A stretch of 64,000 nucleotides of DNA, from positions 160,001 to 224,000 of the forward strand of contig CAWALK010000020.1 of assembly GCA_963782915.1 (NCBI GenBank). Reading direction: 5' to 3'. Positions 26,843-37,169 of this stretch are shown here, one piece after another. Numbering within the stretch: position 1 is the first letter of the stretch; each line of letters begins with the position of its first letter. Source of the stretch: an uncultured archaeon (GTDB lineage Archaea > Thermoproteota > Bathyarchaeia > Bathyarchaeales > Bathycorpusculaceae). The position numbers were made by a program, and so were the translations under genes. Below the pieces are notes generated by a model that saw nothing but the letters and a program-made list of their open reading frames with translations, had not been told where the DNA came from and did not search any database.

Positions 26843-27719
26843 TTATTTTTCCGTTGATTCCAGCATTTTGTACATTGTTTCGTAGCTTTCGCCGTAGTCA
26901 CCATCGACTTTGGCAAGTTTAGCTCGTAAGCGGTCCATGCGTGCCATTATGGCTTGGGAATCCTTCTTTTTCATCAACTCAACCCATTCTTCAGCGTTGG
27001 CGATGAATTGTTCCTCCATTTTTTCTAAGCCTGGAACTTTGGTTTGAACGTTGGCGTAGAGGTCGGGGGTTTCCTGCGCAACCGCTTCCGCAAGGGTGAG
27101 TAGCATGCGGTATGTTGTGCCTGCTAACTTTTTGGATTCTGGGAAGGCTGGTTGTTCAAGCAGGGTTTCGCAGGTGACTAACCCGATGAAATGTGATAAT
27201 CCCAAAATAATTGACATGAGCTCGTCATGTTTCTGTGGAGTCATGACAAAGACGTGGGCTTCTTCTTTTTCGAGCCACGCCTTAAACTCCTGTGCGTAAG
27301 CTTCCTCTTCGGGGTTAGTAGGTGTTAGCACGTAGGCTTTGTGTGCTACGCCGTTGCTGCCTGGCCCAAACACTGGATGCGTACCCAACACCAAGCGCAT
27401 CTTTGAGGTATTGATGCATAACGTTAACTGGAAACTCTTTGATAGAACAAACATCCATGACTGCTTGCCCCTGATGGATGGCAGGGGCTATTTTTTTGAC
27501 GGTTTCCTCAAAAGAGGATATTGATACGCAGATTAAGACGCGGTCAGCGCCTTTAACTGCGGTTGGGAAATCAGCTGTTTCTACGCCCAACTCTTTGCCT
27601 AATTTTGAGAGTTTTTCTGCGTTCCTGTCCGCGAGAACCACGGTGTCTCCTTTGGCTTTACACCATTTGGTGTACCAGACACCCATTTTTCCCGCGCCAA
27701 GAACGGCTGTCCTCATCAA
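26843..27719 (-). CDS. tyrA: Prephenate dehydrogenase (frameshift ~27400)
   Basis: GAGKMG, DVCSIK, THPVFGP, HDELMSIILGLSH. Confidence 0.92.
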
Positions 27720-28794
27720 GTGGCCTCGCAGATTTTCTCTAGTGCAGCTTCGATTTGGTCGTCTGGTGCGGTTAAGCTGATGCGGAAGTGTTCTGGGTAG
27801 TCTCCGAAGCTTGTGCCTGGTGCGACTGCTACGCCTCTGTCGAGTAGGTCGAGGGTGAATTTTACGCCGTCTAAGCCTTCGCGTTTGGGGAACACGTAGA
27901 AGGGTGCGTCTGGCTTGGTGAATTTGAAGCCTGCAGCCGAGAGTTTTGTGGATGCGAGGTCTGCGCGTGCTTTGTATTTGGCTTTGATGTTGGCTGCGAT
28001 TTGTGCGTGGAGTTCCATGCCTTTGAGTGCTGCGTCTTGGATGAAGACTGGGACGTTGTTGAAGGTGATTTGGTTGAGTTTGGTTACGTTGTCTATGTAT
28101 GTTTTGTTGGCGACTATGTACCCGATGCGCCAGCCTGTCATAGTGAAGGTCTTCGAGAAGCCGTTGCTAGAGGATATGTTTAGCTGTCGGCTCCGTAGTC
28201 TAGGATGCTTTTGGTTTTGTTGAAGGCGATTGCTCCATAGACTTCGTCGGAGAGGATCGTTATGCCCTTTTTGTTAGCTAACTCAACTACTTCGTCGAGG
28301 GTTTTGCTGTCCATGACTTTGCTGGTTGGGTTGTTAGGGTTGTTGAGTATGATCATTTTTGTTTCGCTGTCAATTAACTCCTCAAGTTTGGAAACATCGA
28401 CTTTCCAGCCTGTTTCCATTTCTGTGCGGAGTAGCTTGGTTTTTGCGCCAAAGCTCTTAGCGATTAAATCGTAAGCTGTCCAGTAAGGCGTTGGGATGAT
28501 GACGTTGCCGCCGTTCTTGAGCATCAAGAACATAGTAACAAATATAGCCCATTTGGAGCCGGGGGTGATGACAACGTTTTCTGCTTTTACGCCATGGGAT
28601 TCAGCGATTTTTTGTCGCAGACGCAACTCGCCATAGGAGGATGAGTATTTGGTTTTACCCGCCTTCATCGAAGCATAAGCTGCTTCCACGATTTCAGGTG
28701 GAGTAGCCATGTCTGGGTCGCCGAGGTTTAATCGGATGATTTTTTTTCCTTCACTTTCCAGTTTAAGTGCTTTCTCGTTTATTTCATAGAGCAT
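27716..28794 (-). CDS. Class I PLP aminotransferase, probably aromatic/aspartate (frameshift ~28170)
   Basis: NNPNNPT, SDEVY, FSKTFTMTGWRIGY. Confidence 0.9.
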
Positions 28795-28820
28795 AGATCC
28801 GACTCTCCGTTAAGAGTTCT

Positions 28821-29081
28821 CTATTCCTGAACGGCACTGCACATATTAACTATTTCGCGGTAAAGGCGTTCAATTTGGTCTGGGTCTAGCTTGAGCAGTT
28901 CCGCTCTTTCTCTGGCACGTTTGAATACTGCGATTTCTCTTGAGAGGTCCTGGACGGGTTTGCCCTGCTGCTTCTTGAGTTCGCCGATGGCTCGGCATAC
29001 TTTTACTCGCTGGACTATGTCTCTTAGGATTTGGTCGTCGATTGCGTCGACTTTTTCACGTAGCGCTGCTAATTCGCTCAT
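28821..29081 (-). CDS. Chorismate mutase (AroQ type)
   Basis: LREKVDAID...QR...IGELK...D.SRE. Confidence 0.9.
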   Translation of the reverse strand: MSELAALREKVDAIDDQILRDIVQRVKVCRAIGELKKQQGKPVQDLSREIAVFKRARERAELLKLDPDQIERLYREIVNMCSAVQE

Positions 29082-29085
29082 ATGT

Positions 29086-30191
29086 TTAGTGCTCCTTGAG
29101 GGTTTTTGGGATTTCACCTACACGTATAAGGTGATCCGCTAAGTGTGATTGCGACTGCTGCTTCGATTGCTGGCACCGCTTTGGGAACTACACAGGGATC
29201 ATGACGTCCTTTAACGCTGATAGAGGCATTCTCCATCGATGACATGTTGATGGTCTGCTGCTCTTTGGCAGATTGAGGGCGTCGGTTTGATTGCAACTCG
29301 GATAACTATGGGCATGCCTGAGGATAAGCCGCCTAAGATGCCGCCTGCATTCTCCGTTGCCGTAACCACTTTGCCGCCTTTAATTAGGAAGGCGTCATTG
29401 TTTTCTGAGCCGCGGAATTCTGCAGCTTTGAAGCCAGCCCCAAACTCGATGCCTTTAACCGCTGGAACTGCGAACAGTGCCTTAGCTAAATCTCCGTCTA
29501 ATGTGTCAAAGAGAGGTTCCCCAACACCTGCAGGCATGTTGAGTGCTAAGCATTCGATAACTCCGCCAAGGCTGTCGCCCGATTCTTTAGCGCTGATTAT
29601 GGCTGCCTCCATTTGTTCTGCACAGGCAAAATCTGGGCACCGAGTTGTGGTTGAGTAACGGTTCTTCTTGATTTCCGCTGGGCTGAACTTCTTGTCACTT
29701 TTAACTTGCCCAATTGCCGCAGTGTAAGCTAAAACATCAATGTTGTATCTGCCAAGGAGCTTCTTGGCGACTACACCCGCCATGATAAGCGCCACTGTGA
29801 CCCGTCCTGAGAAGCGTCCGCCGCCTCGATAATCGTTGAAGCCGCCGTATCGGATGCGGGCTGGATAATCGGAATGCGCTGGTCGGGGTAGGTCTTTGAT
29901 GGCGTCATAATCGCTTGATTTAGTTTCCTTATTCTCAACCATTAATGCGATGGGTGCGCCTGTGGTAAAACCGTTAAAGACTCCTGATAGAATTTTGGCG
30001 TGGTCCTTCTCGACTCTGGCTGAAACAATTTTGGGCTCCGCTGGAATCCTGCGGTCCAACTCTTCCTGAAAATCCTCTTCGCCAAGAGGCAACCCCGCTG
30101 GGCAACCGTCAACGACTACGCCAACGACTTTGCCATGGCTCTCCCCAAACGTTGTAACAGTGAATTCTTTACCTATCGAGTTTCCCGCCAA
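29086..30191 (-). CDS. aroC: Chorismate synthase (frameshifts near the 3' end)
   Basis: TFGESHG, RPAHSD, GGGRFSGR, KPTPSI, GRHDPCV. Confidence 0.95.
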
Positions 30192-31458
30192 CCACTTCAG
30201 CTCCTAGTTGCTTTATGTGAAGGTAGAACTGCGGATAAGACTTTCTGATGCACTCGGCATGCTCTATTGTGGTTTCTCCTTTTGCGCCGAGTGCGGCGAC
30301 GGCGGCTGCCATGGCGATTCTGTGGTCGTTATGGGGGTCGATGGTTGCGCCGTGGAGTGATGCGCCTTTGATGGTTAAGGCGTCGTCTGTTATTGTGATT
30401 TCTGCGCCCATTTTGCCGAGTTCCTGCTGGATTGATAGTAGCCTATCCGATTCTTTGAGCCTGAAACGTCTTGCACCTGTAATATGAGATGTGCCGTTTG
30501 CGTAACAGGCAAGAACCGCGATGGCTGGGACAAGGTCAGGAATATTTTTTACATCAACCTCTATGGGTTTTAGGGGTTTGCCTGTGCCTTCGATTTCGAC
30601 GCTGTCACGGCAGACTTTGCCTTCTACACCCATCCGTTTGAGAATGGTAAGAATCGCTTTGTCGCCCTGCACCGCTTCATAATCAAGATTGCTAACTGTG
30701 ACTTTGGAGTTGGTGATGGCTGCGGCTGCCAATAGGAATGCTGCTGAGGAGAAGTCGCCTGGGACATTGCTGTCGGTTGCCTTGTAGGCTTGGCTGGCTG
30801 GAACAATTATGCCCTTGTCTTCTAAGCCGACTACTACTGCATGATTGGAGAGGACCGCTTCAGTCATTTTGACGTAATCGGCTGATTCCAGCGGTGAAGT
30901 TAGGGTGATTTCTGTGTCTGCTTCAGCTAATGGGCAAGCAAACATTAGACCCGAAATGAACTGGGAACTCACATTGCCAGCGATAGAGCATTTGCCGCCG
31001 ACGATGCCGCCGCCTTCAACGAAAACAGCGTCTAAATCGCCCTGTTTTCCTACATGGGCGTCTGCGCCAAGCTGTTTGAGGCTCTCAAGCAGTGGCTCCA
31101 CGGGGCGACGCTCAATCGAACCCCTAAACGTAAGAATTGAAGGACCATCTGCCAATGCGGCTACGGGTATCATGAAGCGCAGGGTTGCGCCTGATTCACC
31201 GCAGTCAATGGGCTCCTTTGAGGCTTGGGGTTTTGCGCCTTTGATTGCCCAGCAGCCATCTTGTGCCTTGAATTGTGCGCCTAAAGCGGTGACTGCTCGA
31301 AGTGCAGCTTCGGTATCATCAGATAAAGGCGGATTGAAAATATGTGATGTGCCCTCGGAAAGCGCCGCTGCGATGACCATGCGTTGAGTATAAGATTTCG
31401 AAGGAGGCGCACAAACGCTGCCGCTTAGCTTCTCCGCTTTCTTTACAACTACATCCAT
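30169..31458 (-). CDS. aroA: EPSP synthase
   Basis: PPSKS, GESGATLRF, SSQFISG, RLKESDR, DHRIAM, KSYPQF. Confidence 0.96.
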   Translation of the reverse strand: MDVVVKKAEKLSGSVCAPPSKSYTQRMVIAAALSEGTSHIFNPPLSDDTEAALRAVTALGAQFKAQDGCWAIKGAKPQASKEPIDCGESGATLRFMIPVAALADGPSILTFRGSIERRPVEPLLESLKQLGADAHVGKQGDLDAVFVEGGGIVGGKCSIAGNVSSQFISGLMFACPLAEADTEITLTSPLESADYVKMTEAVLSNHAVVVGLEDKGIIVPASQAYKATDSNVPGDFSSAAFLLAAAAITNSKVTVSNLDYEAVQGDKAILTILKRMGVEGKVCRDSVEIEGTGKPLKPIEVDVKNIPDLVPAIAVLACYANGTSHITGARRFRLKESDRLLSIQQELGKMGAEITITDDALTIKGASLHGATIDPHNDHRIAMAAAVAALGAKGETTIEHAECIRKSYPQFYLHIKQLGAEVVGGKLDR

Positions 31459-31461
31459 CTG

Positions 31462-32331
31462 CTAAGCCACCTTGGCTTTCTCACTGTTAAGTTGTGCCAC
31501 CAAAACTTCGCCTTCATACTTCTGCAAGGCAGCTTTGACTTTATCAACATTATCTTTTGATGTTACTGCGGTTACGGCGGGTCCTTTGCCGCAGAGTCCA
31601 GCTGCAACTGCTCCAGCAGCTAAGGCATCGATTGCGATGGTTGTGTTCTGGTTGGATGCGGCAGAATAGACTAAGCCGTTTAGTGTTAGTGCTTCCCAAA
31701 TTTTGCCTTCCATAGCTTTCTCAAAGGCGATTTGGACAAGGGGTTTTACGGTTTTGAGCCTCTCCACATCTGAGTTTATAGTGTAGGCTTTCTGGGGTGG
31801 CACATGGAAAAGCACCACCAAATCCTTTGGAAGCGTTATCTGTTTGAGGATTTGGCGATTTAGGTTGTCGGTTATGACTGCTCCGCCAAAGTAGGATGCG
31901 CATGCATCATCGAAAGCGCCTGTGATTGTGCATTTGGCGTCAAAAGCCGCTTCTACGCCGATTTTTATTATTTCTAAATCGTCCAGTTTCTTGCCTAATG
32001 CTGTGACGGTGGCGAGTGCGGTTGCGTTTGCTGCTACGCTGCTGCTCTTTAAGCCTCGGGCAGCAGGGATGTTAGACGTAGTTTTAACTTTAGCGCCAAA
32101 TGTCTCTTCTAAATTAAACCGCTCAAGGACCCGTATGACAGTGCGTTCCATCAGAAGCGTGCTTTCTTTTGGGTCAGAGGTTATTTGTATTTCGAAAATG
32201 CCTGCTTCATCTGTAAGTTTGACTTCTGCTTTAGTCCATAAATCTACGCCGAAAGCTGCACCCTTACCTAATGCAATCGCATTTACGATTGTCGCTGCGC
32301 CATGCGCCACTGCCACCGCTTTACCCGCCAA
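31462..32331 (-). CDS. aroK: Archaeal (GHMP-type) shikimate kinase
   Basis: GAATIVNAIA, GLKSSS, ITGAFDDA. Confidence 0.93.
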   Translation of the reverse strand: MAGKAVAVAHGAATIVNAIALGKGAAFGVDLWTKAEVKLTDEAGIFEIQITSDPKESTLLMERTVIRVLERFNLEETFGAKVKTTSNIPAARGLKSSSVAANATALATVTALGKKLDDLEIIKIGVEAAFDAKCTITGAFDDACASYFGGAVITDNLNRQILKQITLPKDLVVLFHVPPQKAYTINSDVERLKTVKPLVQIAFEKAMEGKIWEALTLNGLVYSAASNQNTTIAIDALAAGAVAAGLCGKGPAVTAVTSKDNVDKVKAALQKYEGEVLVAQLNSEKAKVA

Positions 32332-32337
32332 ACCTAT

Positions 32338-33199
32338 CTACACCTTCTGCTGTAAATGAGTTAGCGCTGCCTTCCTCATAACTTCAACGGGTGCCGATTT
32401 GCCTGTCCAGATTTCAAAGGATGCTGCGCCCTGATAAATCAGCATCTCAACGCCGCTCACCACTTTGGCTCCGACGGTTTTGGCGTCTTTTGCCAATTTA
32501 GTTTCAAATGGATTGTAAACGATGTCCATGACTGAGAGGTTTCTTCGGAGCAATTCGGATCGGAACTGGGGTTTGGTCTGGGCGTGGTTTCATGCCCACT
32601 GAGGTGGCGTTGATTAGGACATCTGAATCTTGCAGGTTAGCATCAATATCTTCCAGCGAAAGTGAGCCTGCTACTATTCGTTTGTTAGCTGCTTTCTCCA
32701 CCAACCGTGCCAATGCCTGAGCATCCTTTACGGTACGGTTAAGCACTGCGAGTTCGTCAGCTTCCTTAGCCATCGCATAAGCAATCGCTCTGGCTGCTCC
32801 GCCTGCACCAAGCAACAGCACTTTTCTGCCTTTCAGTTCGACGCCGTTTTCTTTTAGCGCCTTTACTGCGCCTACGCCGTCAGTGTTGAAGCCAAACAGC
32901 AAGTTTTCTTTGTTTAGGACTGTGTTAACTGAATTGATGATTTGGGCTGATAAGTCAATGCGGTCTAAATTTGCCATCACCGTTTTTTTGTGGGGCATGG
33001 TTACGTTTAATCCGCGGATGTTTAGTGCCCGCATCCCATTTACTGCATCCACTACATAGGATGGTTTAACTTTGAACGCTAAAAACACGTAGTCCAAGTC
33101 GAGTGCTTGAAAGGCTGCATTATGCATAATCGGGCTTAGCGAATGCTCAATGGGGTCACCTATGACTCCGCACACTCGAGTTTTGCCCGAAATAGTCAT
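32338..33199 (-). CDS. aroE: Shikimate dehydrogenase (frameshift ~32550)
   Basis: HSLSPIMHN, NVTMPHK, NTDGVG, GAGGAA, DIVYNP, MLIYQG. Confidence 0.95.
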
Positions 33200-33891
33200 T
33201 TATTGCCCTATCCCCAGTAGTTTGTATGCAGTCTTCATTTCTTTTATACTCATCTGTCCCGATGCCGTCTGGTTGCTTTCGTCGAGTGAGGCGAAGGTGA
33301 AGTATGCGCCAAATGCTGGGGAGAGTAACCTTGAGGTTTTGCCTTGCTTCGCCCATGCAGAAGCAGACAAGCTTTGCTTTAGTGGAGGCGAACTGAAACA
33401 AAGCTCAACACTGGGAGGTTGTCTTCGATTTGTTTTGCGGTTAAGACGATTTTGCAGATGTCTGCTCCGCATGCGATTTCGTTCATCGAGGATTTTTTCC
33501 ATGGAGGATGACGTGTTAGGATTCCGTCGAATTTGTGGTAGGAAACGACGGTTTTTGTGCCAAGTTGCTTTAGTTTGCTGAGGGTTTCGCTGCGTTTTGG
33601 GCTGGAAAAATCTACATCGACAAACGCAAAACCGCTTTTAGCAGCGTTCAACAAGGTTTGCTGCCTCTCAGCTTCAGAACCAGTAAAATGCCCTTTCTCA
33701 CTTTGCAACTTGTTCGTTGCAATTAGCGGGATTTTTGTGCTCTTAGGCAGATCCGCTAAATTCCTTGTTTCTTCAAGGCAATCCATGCTGACCTCAACAA
33801 AATCTGCTTGAGCCTTCTCGGCTTTCTCTATTAGGTTTAAGGCTTCGGCTATGTTTTTAGGCATAATAGAGACGCAAATTTTTGCGCTCAC
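33200..33891 (-). CDS. aroD: Type I 3-dehydroquinate dehydratase (frameshifts)
   Basis: ICVSI, VSYH, GADICKIV, SRLLSP, SGQM. Confidence 0.88.
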
Positions 33892-34909
33892 TTCTCAATC
33901 ACCGTTTCATCTGGCACAGAGATGCCAAAGTGTCTGCCTCCACGAGCCGCCAAGTGCACCATGACTTCGTCGCCTGGTTTTAGGTCGGTGACGGGTTTGG
34001 ATGCTTTTGGGGTGACGACTCGGATGGTTTCGGCGTTCTGCAGGATGGTTTTAATGGTTTTTCCCTCTACCTGTGCTTCTACTAAGATGAGTGGGCGGAT
34101 TTCGATTTTTATGCGTGCCAACGTTTGCTTTGCGGGTTTTGCCCTCGCGGTTAACGAGTATGACTTCGTCGCCTGCTTTGAATTCTTGGAGGTAACGTGT
34201 CGTTTGCAGATTGCCCAACGTGTACATGGAGCAGGAGCCGGCGTTTACGCGGAAAGGTCGTGATGCTACATAGGGGTTTTCGTTAACTTCCGCTTCCACC
34301 AAGAACAAGCCTGCGCTTTGGCTGCCGACCAGCATGCCTTCGCCTGGCTGCATCAAGTCACAGGTGTCAACGCAGACGCGTGCGCCGGTGCTGATGGGTT
34401 TGGTGGCTAAGATTTTGGCTGGTACCATCTCAAGTTTTAAGTGCGTCGGGTTTTACGATGGCTACGGTTTTTAGGATTTCATCCGCGTCGGAAGTTTTTA
34501 GCAAGACGCCATCGGTTCCTAATTCAAGGGTTTCCAACGCTACTTTTGCTTCTTCGGCGTTGGTGACTTCTGCGATTAGTTTGCTTTTGCCCTTTATTCG
34601 GGCGATGAGGTTCTCCAGTGGAATAACTCGCCAGTTTGCTGTGCTGACTAAGTATGTGTGTTGCGCCTTGTTCGGCAGCTTTAACGATTAGGTTTTCGCT
34701 TGCTTTGTCACTGATGCAAATCCGCAGAACTTTCTGCTGCTTTATTCTTTTTCGAGGGCAGCCTCATTGCTTGGAGAGACTACGTTGATGGTTTGTTTGT
34801 TAGCTAGAAATTCTGCTTTATCATCTTCGATGACTACATCGACATATTGATTGATAAGCGCCTCTATAGAGCTCTTTTTTTGGGTTGTTTCTAGCCAGAG
34901 TTCCTTCAA
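33888..34909 (-). CDS. 3-dehydroquinate synthase II (AroB'), several frameshifts
   Basis: MKELW start, WRVIPLENLIA, RVCVDTC, GEGMLVG, RPFRVNAG, KIEIRPL, LQNAETI, GRHFG. Confidence 0.9.
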
Positions 34910-35698
34910 GCCTTGACACCCAATAGCTTTTCTGCTTGCTCAACCGACGCATTTTCATGCACAATTGCTGAAAGCGCCTTGGCAATTGCGGTTGGGTTGT
35001 CGCATTGGAACACATTGCGCCCAATGGATAAGTCCTGCTGCGCCTGCTTTGAGTGCATCAAAAGTGGTTTGCAGCACTTCCTGTGGCGATTTGCATTTGG
35101 GTCCACCCGCAATAACGACTGGGGCTGGGCAACTTTCAGTGACCATTTTGAAGGTGTCTATGTTGCCTGTGTAGTTGGTTTTGATGATGTCTGCGCCCAG
35201 TTCAGCGCCGATGCGGGCTGCGTGGGCGACTACTTCGACGGCGTGTTCGTTTTGGATTTTGGGTCCTCGTGGGTACATCATGGCGAGAAGTGGCAATCCG
35301 AAGGCATCGCATTCTTCCGCAACCTTGCCAAGGTTTGCCAGCATTTTGTCTTCGTCTTGTGCGCCAACGTTGACATGAACGGAGACTGCGTCTGCGCCTA
35401 TGCGGAGTGCTTCTTGTACGCTGCATACTTGGACTTTGGCGTTGACGTTTGGGCTCAGGTTTGACATGCCTGAGAGCATCACAATTAAGCCTGCGCCGTC
35501 TACGTCGATGCGTCTGGCGATGCCTTTGTGGACTAGGATGGCGTCGACTTTGCCTTTGATTAGTTGGTTGGTGATGGTTTGCATGTTAGTTATGCCCTGT
35601 ATGGGTCCGACGGTGACTCCGTGGTCCATTGGGACAATGACTGTGCGGTTGTCTTTTTGGAAGACCTGTTTTAGTCTGCGGGTTTTGCCTTCGTTCAT
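34906..35698 (-). CDS. ADH synthase (AroA', class I aldolase); frameshift ~35030
   Basis: IVPMDHG, MMYPRG, AELGADIIKT, VVIAGGPK, SIGRNVFQ; adjacent to AroB'. Confidence 0.9.
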
Positions 35699-35708
35699 AG
35701 TTCCACTT

Positions 35709-36952
35709 CTAATGTGTTTTAAGCGCGTTTTTAATTAACTTTAGCGCCTTCTCTTTCTCGTTCCAATCTACAAAAAGCAGAATACTCGATGTAATTGTTA
35801 ATATGCCGCTGATGTTTATGCCGTTAACGCGCAGGTCCTCGCTGATTTTGCCGATGATGCCCTGAGTTTCCTCTAAGCCGACTCCGCTGGTTTTGAGGAA
35901 GACAAGGTCTTTTTTGACTGCCATGGCTATGGTTTCTTTGTTGTTGATGGTGATGTCGTGGATTTGGTTGAAGAGTTTGCTGATATTCTCGGTTTGTGGG
36001 ACGTAGACGATGATGGAGTTGGTATTCATGGACATGCCTATGAGGCAGGTGTTTTCTTTGACTTTTTGAACGATTTCAGTAATGACTTGTGGATTCTTTG
36101 ACATGCCTTCGCCAATGACAGTGATTTCTGCGACTGGGCCTTCGTTGGCGATTTCGGCATCGAGTTCGGTTGCTAAGCCATCGGTTATGATAGTGCCGTT
36201 TTTGCTTAGGTCGTCGAGTTTGTTGCTCACGACTTTAACGTCTATGTCTTTAGGTTTGTACTTAAGCGCTTTATGTGGATGAATTTAGCGCCTGAATCTG
36301 CCAAACCGACCAATGTGTTGACGTTGATTGTTGGGAGCAGTTTTGGTTGAGCGATGATTTTGGGGTCGCTGGACATGATGCCCTCGGCATCGGTGACCAA
36401 GACGATTTGGTCGGCGTTTATGCCTTGGCCCATGAGGAAGGCTGTGGTGTCGCTTCCGCCCCTGCCAAGGGTGGTGATTTTGCCGTCTTTGGTTTTGCCG
36501 ATGAAGCCTGCGATGACTGGGATGGTGCCTGCTTCAACCAGTGGGAGGATGTTTTCTTTGATGTTTTTCTCGCATTCCTTAACCAGTGGATTTGCGTTCT
36601 GGAAGTTCTCATCCGTAACTATAGGCCATTTGGCATCCATTGGGTCAAAGTAGCATGCGTCAACGCCATTGTTTCGAAGGGCGGCGGCGAAGAGGCGTAT
36701 GCTTGTTCGTTCCCCCATCGAGAGGATGTCGTCTAATTCATGTTTTGCAAGTTTCCCATTCGAAGTGTTTTTTGCTGTGGCTAAAAGTTGGTCTGTGGTT
36801 TTACCCATAGCTGACACTACAACGGCGAGTTTAGTGCCTTTTTTGGATTCGTTAACGACTGCCATGACTGCTTTTAACATGCGTTCGTGATCAGCTAGGC
36901 TGGAACCGCCGAATTTAACCACAATTTTACGTTCAGAGAGTTGTCTTGTCAT
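35709..36952 (-). CDS. lysC: Second aspartate kinase heading the aromatic operon (frameshift ~36265)
   Basis: VVKFGGSSL, VVSAMG, SMGER, TTLGRGGSDTTA, two ACT-like C-terminal domains; GGGTG RBS at 36962-36966. Confidence 0.9.
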
Positions 36953-36974
36953 TTTATGTTGCACCCATTTCTTT

Positions 36975-37012
36975 GCCCAGAACCGTTCTCAAAAAATTTG
37001 TCAGTTCTGGGC
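36975..37012 (-). promoter_or_regulatory. Leader hairpin with U-tract loop between the leader ORF and the aromatic operon
   Basis: RNA GCCCAGAACUG-ACAAAUUUUUUGAGAA-CGGUUCUGGGC; 11-bp stem including one U-G pair. Confidence 0.7.
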
Positions 37013-37102
37013 TTAAGGAAAATAACTGTAATAATAAAAGCCGTAGTCGAAGCTGTGGAATTGTGCTGCGTTGAATTCGCTTTTGGCTTTAGCGTTGAGC
37101 AT
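37013..37102 (-). CDS. Putative Phe/Tyr-rich leader peptide (29 aa)
   Basis: MLNAKAKSEFNAAQFHSFDYGFYYYSYFP*, with 5 Phe and 5 Tyr; AGGT RBS-like motif upstream; lies between the promoter and the aro operon. Confidence 0.75.
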   Translation of the reverse strand: MLNAKAKSEFNAAQFHSFDYGFYYYSYFP

Positions 37103-37134
37103 AGCTTCGAACCTGTCCAATCACTCGCATCTTA

Positions 37135-37152
37135 GAAAATATAAGCGTTTCG
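37135..37152 (-). promoter_or_regulatory. BRE-TATA promoter of the leader/aromatic operon
   Basis: Minus strand CGAAACG-CTTATATTT, about 35-50 nt upstream of the leader ATG. Confidence 0.55.
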
Positions 37153-37169
37153 GATTAGAGCTTTTTAAC

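Follow-up and report, generated by a model that had tools for sequence, protein, structure and literature searches.

A hairpin abutting the stop codon of a phenylalanine/tyrosine leader ahead of an archaeal aro operon: a candidate ribosome-sensed attenuator

The stretch of DNA analysed here, referred to as the window, comprises 64,000 nucleotides (nt) of contig CAWALK010000020.1 in assembly GCA_963782915.1 (positions 160,001 to 224,000), from an uncultured archaeon of the family Bathycorpusculaceae in the Bathyarchaeia. On its minus strand a small open reading frame (sORF) crowded with phenylalanine (Phe, F) and tyrosine (Tyr, Y) codons precedes an aspartate kinase gene, the first gene of an operon for aromatic amino acid biosynthesis (aro). 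Here, we report that the stop codon of this predicted leader is directly followed by a hairpin, named P2, which is, judged by its conservation and substitution pattern, a functional RNA structure of the sense strand. We regard it as probable that P2 is the ribosome-sensed functional hairpin of an F/Y attenuator. The complete statement, in which P2 is the ribosome-sensed element of a Phe/Tyr leader attenuator for the aspartate kinase/aro operon and the OFF state is reached through a U-tract and the termination factor aCPSF1 (FttA), is a serious candidate that falls a little short of an even chance, and the part of it that makes the U-tract and aCPSF1 the output in this genus is doubtful.

A preliminary description of the region, drawn from the letters of the window alone, had placed an 11-bp stem at the first base after the leader stop, with a run of six uridines (U6) inside the loop and none after the stem. 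Coordinates, folding and sequence all agree with this anatomy; the stem includes one G-U pair, begins at the base following TAA and has no U-run behind it, and a scan for bacterial-type terminators between 36700 and 37300 returned no site. A small correction concerns the start of the aspartate kinase gene, whose ATG lies at 36952-36950, position 36953 being the preceding base. Folded alone, P2 reaches -18.9 kcal/mol (z = -5.09) and none of 200 dinucleotide shuffles was equally stable; the stability of the whole 186-nt leader is ordinary (z = -1.26, 21 of 200 shuffles as stable). The P2 motif is found once in the 3.28-Mb genome, and Rfam 15 yielded no family, its two matches being at the level of chance (E = 1 and 5.8; 18 and 6.3 bits, with gathering thresholds of 100 and 90).

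An ortholog of the aspartate kinase was retrieved from 24 of 24 congeneric genomes, all of which have the same upstream layout, and P2 is present in every one. Its 9-bp core is paired in all 24, with five one-sided changes to G-U, while the tenth pair is kept in 18 and the eleventh in nine. The stop codon abuts GCCCAGAAC or overlaps it by one base in 23 of the 24; in L002 it lies 5 nt before the arm, and there a TAG two codons downstream of the stop overlaps the arm. The loop varies from 12 to 21 nt across the genus and the spacer to the GGGUG-like motif is variable as well, and the 3' arm core GUUCUGGGC is invariant. When the 24 congeneric leaders were folded jointly with RNAalifold, exactly two helices were predicted, namely the P2 9-bp core and an upstream helix, P1 (UCGAA with UUCGA). 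Some minimum free energy (MFE) folds add an apical mini-stem between the A-run and the U-run of the loop; the two runs are swapped in one genome, another has a different 4-bp apical stem, and loop alignments are unreliable. Within the genus the evidence from these alignments is strong conservation and not covariation.

The placement of the hairpin is kept well beyond the genus. The survey covered other genera of the family, other families and other classes of the phylum, and a hairpin of 8 bp or more and -8 kcal/mol or lower, starting no more than 6 nt from the stop, was found sequence by sequence in 50 of 56 distinct leaders versus 79 of 600 ordinary gene stops of this genome. A stricter cut on the leaders (at least six F/Y) left 69 distinct loci, and a finer search located the start of the hairpin between -2 and +5 nt from the stop in all 69. 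Hairpin energies range from -9.9 to -34.6 kcal/mol in 68 of these leaders, the remaining one having -3.6 kcal/mol, and 5 to 22 nt separate the hairpin end from the Shine-Dalgarno motif across lineages. As in bacterial attenuators, the stop is so placed that a terminating ribosome would mask the next pairing segment. The stems themselves differ between lineages, with GCCCAGAAC in this genus, GGAGAAGCC...GGUUUCUCC, GGGGACCG...CGGUCCUC, GCUUCGAAACC...GGUUUCGAAGC and GGCUAAAACGG...CCGUUUUAGCC elsewhere, and in further stems a purine-rich arm faces a CU-rich one. By this comparison, many lineages of the phylum keep the leader, P1 and the post-stop hairpin in the same place and architecture, with stems of different sequence. 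The structural conservation on which the preliminary description had made its proposal depend is thus found, both in the P2 core (24 of 24) and in the stop-abutting place outside the genus.

The substitutions in the two arms identify the strand on which the stem acts. In 40 distinct variants of this type of stem, the 5' arm has gone from A to G opposite U ten times and from C to U opposite G twice, one basal pair has changed from G-C to A-U, and the 3' arm varies at its final base alone, if three sequences carrying an additional U are set aside. On the sense strand, five of 360 cells lack a pair, compared with 17 if the antisense strand were the RNA. Because this asymmetry matches the wobble rules for these arms, a stem in sense-strand RNA is indicated. 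An inverted repeat with two nearly invariant 9-nt arms in one genus could also be read as a DNA operator for a dimeric transcription factor. That reading was rejected and we give it hardly any credence: the spacing of the arms varies between 12 and 21 bp, the tolerated substitutions are compatible with G-U pairing on the sense strand only, some 100 nt separate the repeat from the promoter upstream, and other lineages keep the position relative to the stop with unrelated sequences.

The leader consists of 29 codons and ends ...SFDYGFYYYSYFP before the stop, with eight of its last 14 codons specifying Phe or Tyr. The table of ORFs gives an upstream TTG (37120) as its start; the ATG at 37102 is the start conserved in relatives. 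An F/Y-rich sORF is present at all 41 loci first examined, with five to ten F/Y among the last 14 codons, and the leader recognised in the preliminary description is in this respect well founded. At 20 loci from other orders and classes, the number of aromatic residues in the last 14 codons is eight to ten in seven, five or six in seven and four or fewer in six. U-ending Phe and Tyr codons make up 61% and 58% in leaders of the genus and 64% and 84% in leaders elsewhere, versus 40% and 37% genome-wide. Congeneric leaders share the core AGCUUCGA(C/A), followed by the F/Y codons, and have a variable N-terminal half. The predicted leader is an sORF with codons for the end products, upstream of the operon and on its strand, as in bacterial attenuators.

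Leader endings with Pro before the stop are common, -FP-stop in 15 of 24 leaders of the genus and -GP-stop in two other families (L135-L139 among them). Pro-stop is a slow termination context in bacteria, and slow termination of this kind would lengthen the dwell of the ribosome on the leader stop. A crude scan of the genome for leaders of other amino acids, with arbitrary thresholds, gave 34 candidates. The F/Y leader described here is the only one of them ahead of a biosynthetic operon, and unrelated genes follow two others, one rich in W and one, like the leader, rich in F/Y.

The second conserved helix, P1, joins GGUUCGAAGC, which all 24 congeners have immediately upstream of the leader ATG, to the Ser-Phe-Asp codons that head the control codons. 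Its 5-bp core is paired in 98.3% of cells across the 24 sequences and has changed by wobble only, and elsewhere a P1 is found with a different sequence, e.g. AUAGCCACU with AGUGGCUAU inside leader codons. Compared with mononucleotide shuffles the mean z was -1.6, and below -2 in 12 of 41 leaders, a weak test in which the folding window clipped the 5' arm in one clade; the case for P1 is built on the pair counts, the P1s of other lineages and RNAalifold, not on the shuffles. P1 could limit leader re-initiation or synchronise ribosome and polymerase. Pairing of the P1 5' arm with the P2 5' arm (GGUUC with GAAC), looked for by eye only, was rejected, as it amounts to 4-6 bp with flanks that are not conserved.

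A rival reading takes the sORF to encode a functional aromatic-rich micropeptide, with a merely intercistronic hairpin behind it. The ORF is indeed intact at all loci examined, and alignment gaps between the leader ATG and the stop span 3 or 6 columns. However, F/Y richness is all that is kept across lineages, and the leaders differ greatly in their N-terminal half. The remaining conserved residues, SFD and SGY, fall on the P1 3' arm and are explained by the RNA, and an aro operon downstream agrees with the codons of the leader. A micropeptide function therefore seems highly improbable to us.

How P2 might be sensed follows from its distance to the leader codons. Ribosomes cover about 12 nt beyond the A site, as seen in bacterial footprints. 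A ribosome on the leader stop would cover the whole 5' arm and keep P2 melted, and this would happen each time translation runs through to the end of the leader. If the ribosome stalls 9-36 nt upstream, at the Phe/Tyr codons, the arm would stay free, and P2 would close once its 3' arm has been made; at the first hungry Phe/Tyr codons, 15-36 nt before the stop, the ribosome would also cover the P1 3' arm. Because a biosynthetic operon should be switched on at starvation, closed P2 would correspond to ON and open P2, with Phe and Tyr plentiful, to OFF. This logic, reversed with respect to bacterial attenuators, needs no antiterminator and fits the absence of a conserved one.

P2 could also have a more passive role. 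A constitutive P2 might stabilise the mRNA, insulate the aspartate kinase start from ribosomes terminating on the sORF (a block to scanning or re-initiation), or fold the gap against termination factors, with Phe and Tyr sensed through P1 or by another route. P2 does fill nearly the whole gap between stop and Shine-Dalgarno motif in every lineage, the ribosome-binding site (RBS) just after it is unusually open, and no conserved alternative structure competes with P2. A stabiliser, however, needs no placement of the stem against or across the stop, which is found in 69 of 69 leaders (-2 to +5 nt) and suits sensing by the ribosome, and it leaves the fixed distance from stop to U-run in the genus unexplained. 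We consider constitutive action unlikely, though not to be disregarded.

The OFF output in this genus would be U-tract-dependent termination or cleavage, which is the weakest step of the proposal. A run of five or more uridines (U5+) between the leader stop and the kinase start is present in 19 of 24 congeners versus 13.7% of 241 upstream regions of this genome, and one of six or more in 16 of 24 versus 5.4%; the genomes are related, and the enrichment is not to be taken as a probability. Counted from the first base of the stop, the U-run begins at +18 to +20 in 20 of 22 leaders, the loop varying in length 3' of the run. Some lineages have a U5 or U4 run after the stem instead, for instance GGUUUCGAAGC-UUUUUGUUUU in L132 and ...AGCCC-UUUUU in L066. 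The loop U-run is by these alignments a conserved feature of this clade and its nearest kin, not of the whole element.

The accessible text on FttA describes a factor that binds U-rich RNA, needs the nascent RNA from -1 to -36 and leaves 3' ends with U-rich RNA at -9 to -14 (PMC11616081), and in Methanococcus, according to the part of that report available, U4 tracts set termination strength (PMC8716108). This genome encodes aCPSF1/FttA (TIGR03675, 898.8 bits with a cut-off of 580.2, full length, in a 647-aa open frame on contig 12), and the nascent RNA here holds U6 and two U4 tracts, where archaeal termination sites carry at least one tract of four or more. Positions 36982-36977, which are 9-14 nt beyond the last U, belong to the P2 3' arm. 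With P2 open, U6, 3' arm and spacer would form the continuous single strand that aCPSF1/FttA needs; with P2 closed, the expected cleavage zone 9-14 nt past the U-run would be locked in the stem.

A conventional arrangement, in which P2 with the nearby U-run is a terminator or pause site and closed P2 means OFF, has some observations on its side. A U5 or U4 follows the stem directly in the lineages just mentioned (L132, L066), and by eye GGUUC starts both the P1 5' arm and the P2 3' arm. Relief would then have to come from an unrecognised antiterminator or from a ribosome pushing at the U-run. In the genus, however, no U-run follows the stem and no terminator-like site was scored, no antiterminator pairing is conserved, and stalling would free P2 and lower expression at starvation, which is the wrong sign. 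Archaeal termination is moreover not known to need a hairpin. U-tracts and aCPSF1 are what the accessible part of PMC8716108 stresses. A bacterial-style terminator is on these grounds very unlikely.

Ribosome position might instead act on translation, through a P2 state that sets the pairing of the aspartate kinase Shine-Dalgarno motif or start, with GCCCA, the freed 3' arm or P2-clamped control codons as the partner. Exposure of the RBS was one of two outputs suggested in the preliminary description, together with pairings of the stop/5' arm region with the control codons (GGCUU with AAGCC, CAGUU with AACUG) and of GCCCA with UGGGU at the RBS. The letters of the first two pairings are present, but each comprises 5 bp only: GGCUU-AAGCC is paired in 71.7% of cells, with the outer pairs broken in 16 and 13 of 24 sequences, and CAGUU-AACUG in 66.7% with many gaps, and the two cross each other. 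GCCCA is indeed complementary to UGGGU, the three C-G pairs being kept in 19-23 of 24 (21-23 when two U-G are counted); this retention is due to the Shine-Dalgarno motif being GGGUG, and neither covariation nor a measurable effect on the RBS accompanies it. None of these alternative pairings was predicted by RNAalifold from the 24 congeneric leaders.

Folding with ribosome footprints as constraints left the RBS nearly equally open in the three states modelled. Across 41 leaders its mean unpaired probability is 0.44 in the ribosome-free RNA, 0.49 when a ribosome occupies the stop and 0.45 when one is stalled eight codons earlier. These tests are equilibrium thermodynamic models, and kinetic effects are possible. 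In favour of a translational switch, the cost of opening the RBS in the genus falls from 7.9 to 5.2 kcal/mol with the A site 3-4 codons before the stop (7.4 kcal/mol on the stop), and in many MFE folds P2 continues outward into pairs between control codons and RBS region. Yet 150 RBS regions of this genome swapped into the leader respond to the ribosome as strongly or more so (2.66 +/- 2.26 kcal/mol, compared with 1.57 kcal/mol for the native one), the native RBS is more open than 98.7% of these replacements, and native control codons bind their RBS no better than those of mismatched pairs from other genomes (-7.73 versus -8.51 kcal/mol, permutation p = 0.99). No helix between control codons and RBS appears in RNAalifold, the 3' arm GUUCUGGGC holds no anti-Shine-Dalgarno sequence in this genus, and the 5-bp GCCCA-UGGGU is unable to compete with the 11-bp P2. 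In these models sequestration of the RBS is not supported in this genus, and the RBS seems to be selected to stay open; a sequestered RBS opened by a stalled ribosome, as in the translational attenuation of erm, cat and the poly-Cys sORFs, is not what they return. Despite the mycobacterial poly-Cys sORF as a precedent, as far as the available text of that preprint describes it (bioRxiv 10.1101/834739), a translational switch is in our judgement improbable here.

Two partners were rejected. Control codons acting as a P2-clamped anti-RBS in this genus find no support in the RBS swaps or in the comparison of native with mismatched binding. For the freed 3' arm, the best downstream partner at about 20 of 44 loci (-6 to -15 kcal/mol) is GCCUAG, some 70 nt downstream in the SSLADH codons; it was set aside because it is a by-product of a conserved protein motif, because the best partners elsewhere are scattered, and because the pairing would enclose the RBS and not cover it.

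In some lineages outside the genus, a CU-rich 3' arm (CUCC or CCUC) stands directly before GGAGG or GGUGG at 12 of the 69 loci. In such lineages OFF may consist of the freed arm sequestering the Shine-Dalgarno motif, which would have the same sign as the output proposed above. U5+ runs occur at 2 of these 12 loci versus 34 of the other 57, loci that are related and dominated by this clade, and the inverse relation of anti-Shine-Dalgarno arm and U5 run is only a hint. In L026, L027, L042-L046, L135-L139 and L143 the CU-rich arm ends 2-5 nt before GGAGG, GGUGG or GGGGG and the 5' arm is itself Shine-Dalgarno-like (GGAGA or GGGGA), a layout that would permit an anti-Shine-Dalgarno switch of the right sign. 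L132 and L133, from one family of the same class, have a hairpin of GCUUCGA(A/G)(A/G)CC with GGUUUCGAAGC, nearly the P1 sequence of this genus, with UUUUUGUUUU or UUUUUAU directly behind it and GGAGG next; the leader of one of them ends ...NPYYYYYYYCFF before the stop.

Several points weigh against the proposed attenuator. The case is built on sequence comparison and folding models, leader translation, 3' ends and expression all being predicted, and the assignment of ON and OFF derives from the logic of a biosynthetic operon. A search of sequencing runs gave a single run containing this stretch, one that is not recorded as RNA. None of the 14 pairs in the RNAalifold helices, and no pair of the P2 9-bp core within the genus, shows a compensatory double change; such covariation support as the alignments suggest consists of the asymmetry of wobble changes, a single basal pair from another genus within the family and the replacement of whole stems between lineages. 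The loop U-run is absent or short in 5 of 24 congeners and not universal, with U5+ in 5 of 17 leaders outside the genus. Its predicted single-strandedness is 0.71 with P2 closed and 0.57 with a ribosome on the stop; as the run is unpaired in either state, exposure cannot mean simple unpairing. FttA takes RNA straight from the exit channel of the polymerase, which may leave P2 without time to compete, and simple polarity reasoning predicts more termination, not less, upon stalling of the ribosome. Finally, the operon in this genome may be decaying or mis-assembled. The proposal in the preliminary description that ribosome position operates a switch is kept in part: the anatomy of the stop-abutting hairpin and the comparative data argue for it, and the three alternative pairings, the unpairing of the U-tract and exposure of the RBS find no support.

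It is conceivable, though on the whole unlikely, that these loci represent the first archaeal family of ribosome-mediated amino acid attenuators, in the Bathyarchaeia and other classes, working by an inverted logic. P2 would act in anti-termination or anti-cleavage, a completed leader would offer U-tract and 3' arm to aCPSF1/FttA, and sister lineages would capture the Shine-Dalgarno motif instead.

Table 1. Elements of the leader region, in the order of predicted transcription; positions are those of the window.
Element	Position	Strand	Basis or remark
Promoter-like element CCGAAACGCTTATATTTT (transcription factor B recognition element plus TATA-like TTATAT, 37143-37138)	37136..37153	-	Conservation; promoter function and transcription start putative
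P1 5' arm GGUUCGAAGC, flanked by an AGGU Shine-Dalgarno-like motif and the leader ATG	37104..37113	-	Pairs with 37054-37046
Leader ORF MLNAKAKSEFNAAQFHSFDYGFYYYSYFP-stop, ATG at 37102, stop TAA at 37015-37013	37013..37102	-	Sequence, conservation
P1 3' arm AGCUUCGAC (Ser-Phe-Asp codons heading the control codons)	37046..37054	-	Folding, alignment
Control codons YGFYYYSYFP, U-rich, two U4 tracts (37039-37036, 37022-37019)	37016..37045	-	Sequence
P2 5' arm GCCCAGAACUG, from the first base after the stop	37002..37012	-	Sequence, folding, alignment; 37012-37002 pairs with 36985-36975
P2 loop ACAAAUUUUUUGAGAA, 16 nt; A-run, then U6 at 36996-36991	36986..37001	-	Sequence, folding
P2 3' arm CGGUUCUGGGC	36975..36985	-	9-nt core invariant in 24/24; substitutions fit sense-strand RNA
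Shine-Dalgarno motif GGGUG of the aspartate kinase gene	36962..36966	-	Conserved G-rich motif 5-10 nt upstream of ATG
Aspartate kinase gene, N-terminal part, first in the aro operon	36242..36952 (ATG 36952-36950)	-	NCBIfam aspartate kinase models

The positions of these elements are collected in Table 1. Between the P2 3' arm and the aspartate kinase ATG lies a 22-nt stretch holding GGGUG, with AAAGAAA directly 3' of the stem. The promoter-like element is nearly invariant in 23 of the 24 congeneric leaders, these being the 23 whose retrieved sequence extends that far. The leader region is confirmed by the nearest relative, L063, which is 96% identical and from whose leader it differs by one base, and similarity to L063 starts at the promoter element, the sequence upstream being unrelated. 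The nearest named relatives are metagenome-assembled genomes (MAGs) of Bathyarchaeia/Bathyarchaeota, in support of the archaeal host assumed in the preliminary description.

The operon (27716-36952, all genes on the minus strand) runs in the order aspartate kinase, 2-amino-3,7-dideoxy-D-threo-hept-6-ulosonate synthase (aroA'), 3-dehydroquinate (DHQ) synthase II (aroB'), aroD, aroE, an archaeal-type shikimate kinase (aroK), aroA, aroC, chorismate mutase and an aminotransferase. We take it to be the archaeal aspartate-semialdehyde/6-deoxy-5-ketofructose 1-phosphate (DKFP) route to chorismate, with its own aspartate kinase. Several genes are split. The aspartate kinase is broken by a 1-nt deletion near 36274 (compared with L063), leaving an open frame of 248 aa versus 411-432 aa in relatives, and the part with the ACT domain follows in 35709-36230. 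DHQ synthase II is divided into at least three pieces, and aroD and the aminotransferase into two each. aroK, aroA, aroC and neighbouring genes are intact. These frame breaks may stem from indel errors in assembly, or the operon may really be decaying.

A second, more distant aspartate kinase paralog is found in the same window at 250-738 on the minus strand (37% identity, open frame of 469 aa), and most relatives have two to four aspartate kinase matches; the leader survey was limited to the aro-linked copy. Two records with this aspartate kinase and leader, L054 and L071, are titled Methanocella sp. (88% identity) and Micrarchaeota, titles that are probably binning or labelling errors and not the true hosts.

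To our knowledge, attenuation by leader peptides is presented in teaching as an invention of bacteria, dependent on intrinsic termination driven by hairpins. A search of the full-text literature, with subscription-only literature outside its reach, found no amino acid leader attenuator in archaea. Two archaeal ribosome profiling papers, in the portions of their text that were accessible, mention sORFs in 5' untranslated regions, and one calls them 'reminiscent' of bacterial leader peptides. The signature described here, an F/Y leader with a stop-abutting hairpin and a Shine-Dalgarno motif, stands ahead of the DKFP-type aro operon in MAGs of many uncultured archaea. If the proposal is true, it shows a readout of ribosome position where the polymerase terminates on U-tracts with a CPSF73-like factor, and it makes archaeal transcription-translation coupling and polarity directly testable on a natural switch. 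The signature is simple enough to be usable in finding further archaeal attenuators.

Among known systems, archaeal terminators at U-tracts served by aCPSF1 resemble the element in that U6 is present, with two U4 tracts in the 50 nt preceding it, and aCPSF1 is encoded. The UU of the 3' arm follows the U-run at 9-10 nt, near the spacing of U-rich site and cleavage given in the accessible text of PMC11616081. Unlike the terminators dealt with in the available parts of PMC8716108 and PMC11616081, however, the candidate site here does not close a transcription unit but sits in a hairpin loop between a leader and the first gene.

A gate operated by a ribosome at or near the leader stop and acting on a termination factor has its parallels in Escherichia coli tnaC with Rho and in Salmonella mgtL and corL. 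The factor proposed here from the sequence would be aCPSF1/FttA on a U-tract and not Rho on a rut site, and the sign is opposite to that of tnaC. The leaderless poly-Cys sORFs of mycobacteria, in the portion of that preprint at hand (bioRxiv 10.1101/834739), share with erm and cat that a stall on the codons of one amino acid alters the structure before the next gene. As far as that portion goes, the structure in those systems sequesters the downstream RBS, whereas in the leaders modelled here every state leaves the RBS open, and native pairs have no extra complementarity.

The element also resembles the bacterial attenuators of E. coli pheA/pheL, trp and his, with an ORF of end-product codons upstream, a hairpin at the start of the control region and a masking placement of the stop. 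The leader here ends Phe-Pro-stop, as pheL reportedly does. In contrast to these attenuators, the leader RNA forms two non-overlapping hairpins with no conserved antiterminator and no mutually exclusive pairings, and in place of the GC-rich stem and U-run of an intrinsic terminator the U-run is in the loop. The hairpin must moreover be the ON state for the sign to be right, and the archaeal polymerase with aCPSF1/FttA is a machinery of another kind. The element senses like the bacterial leader attenuators, yet it falls outside that family.

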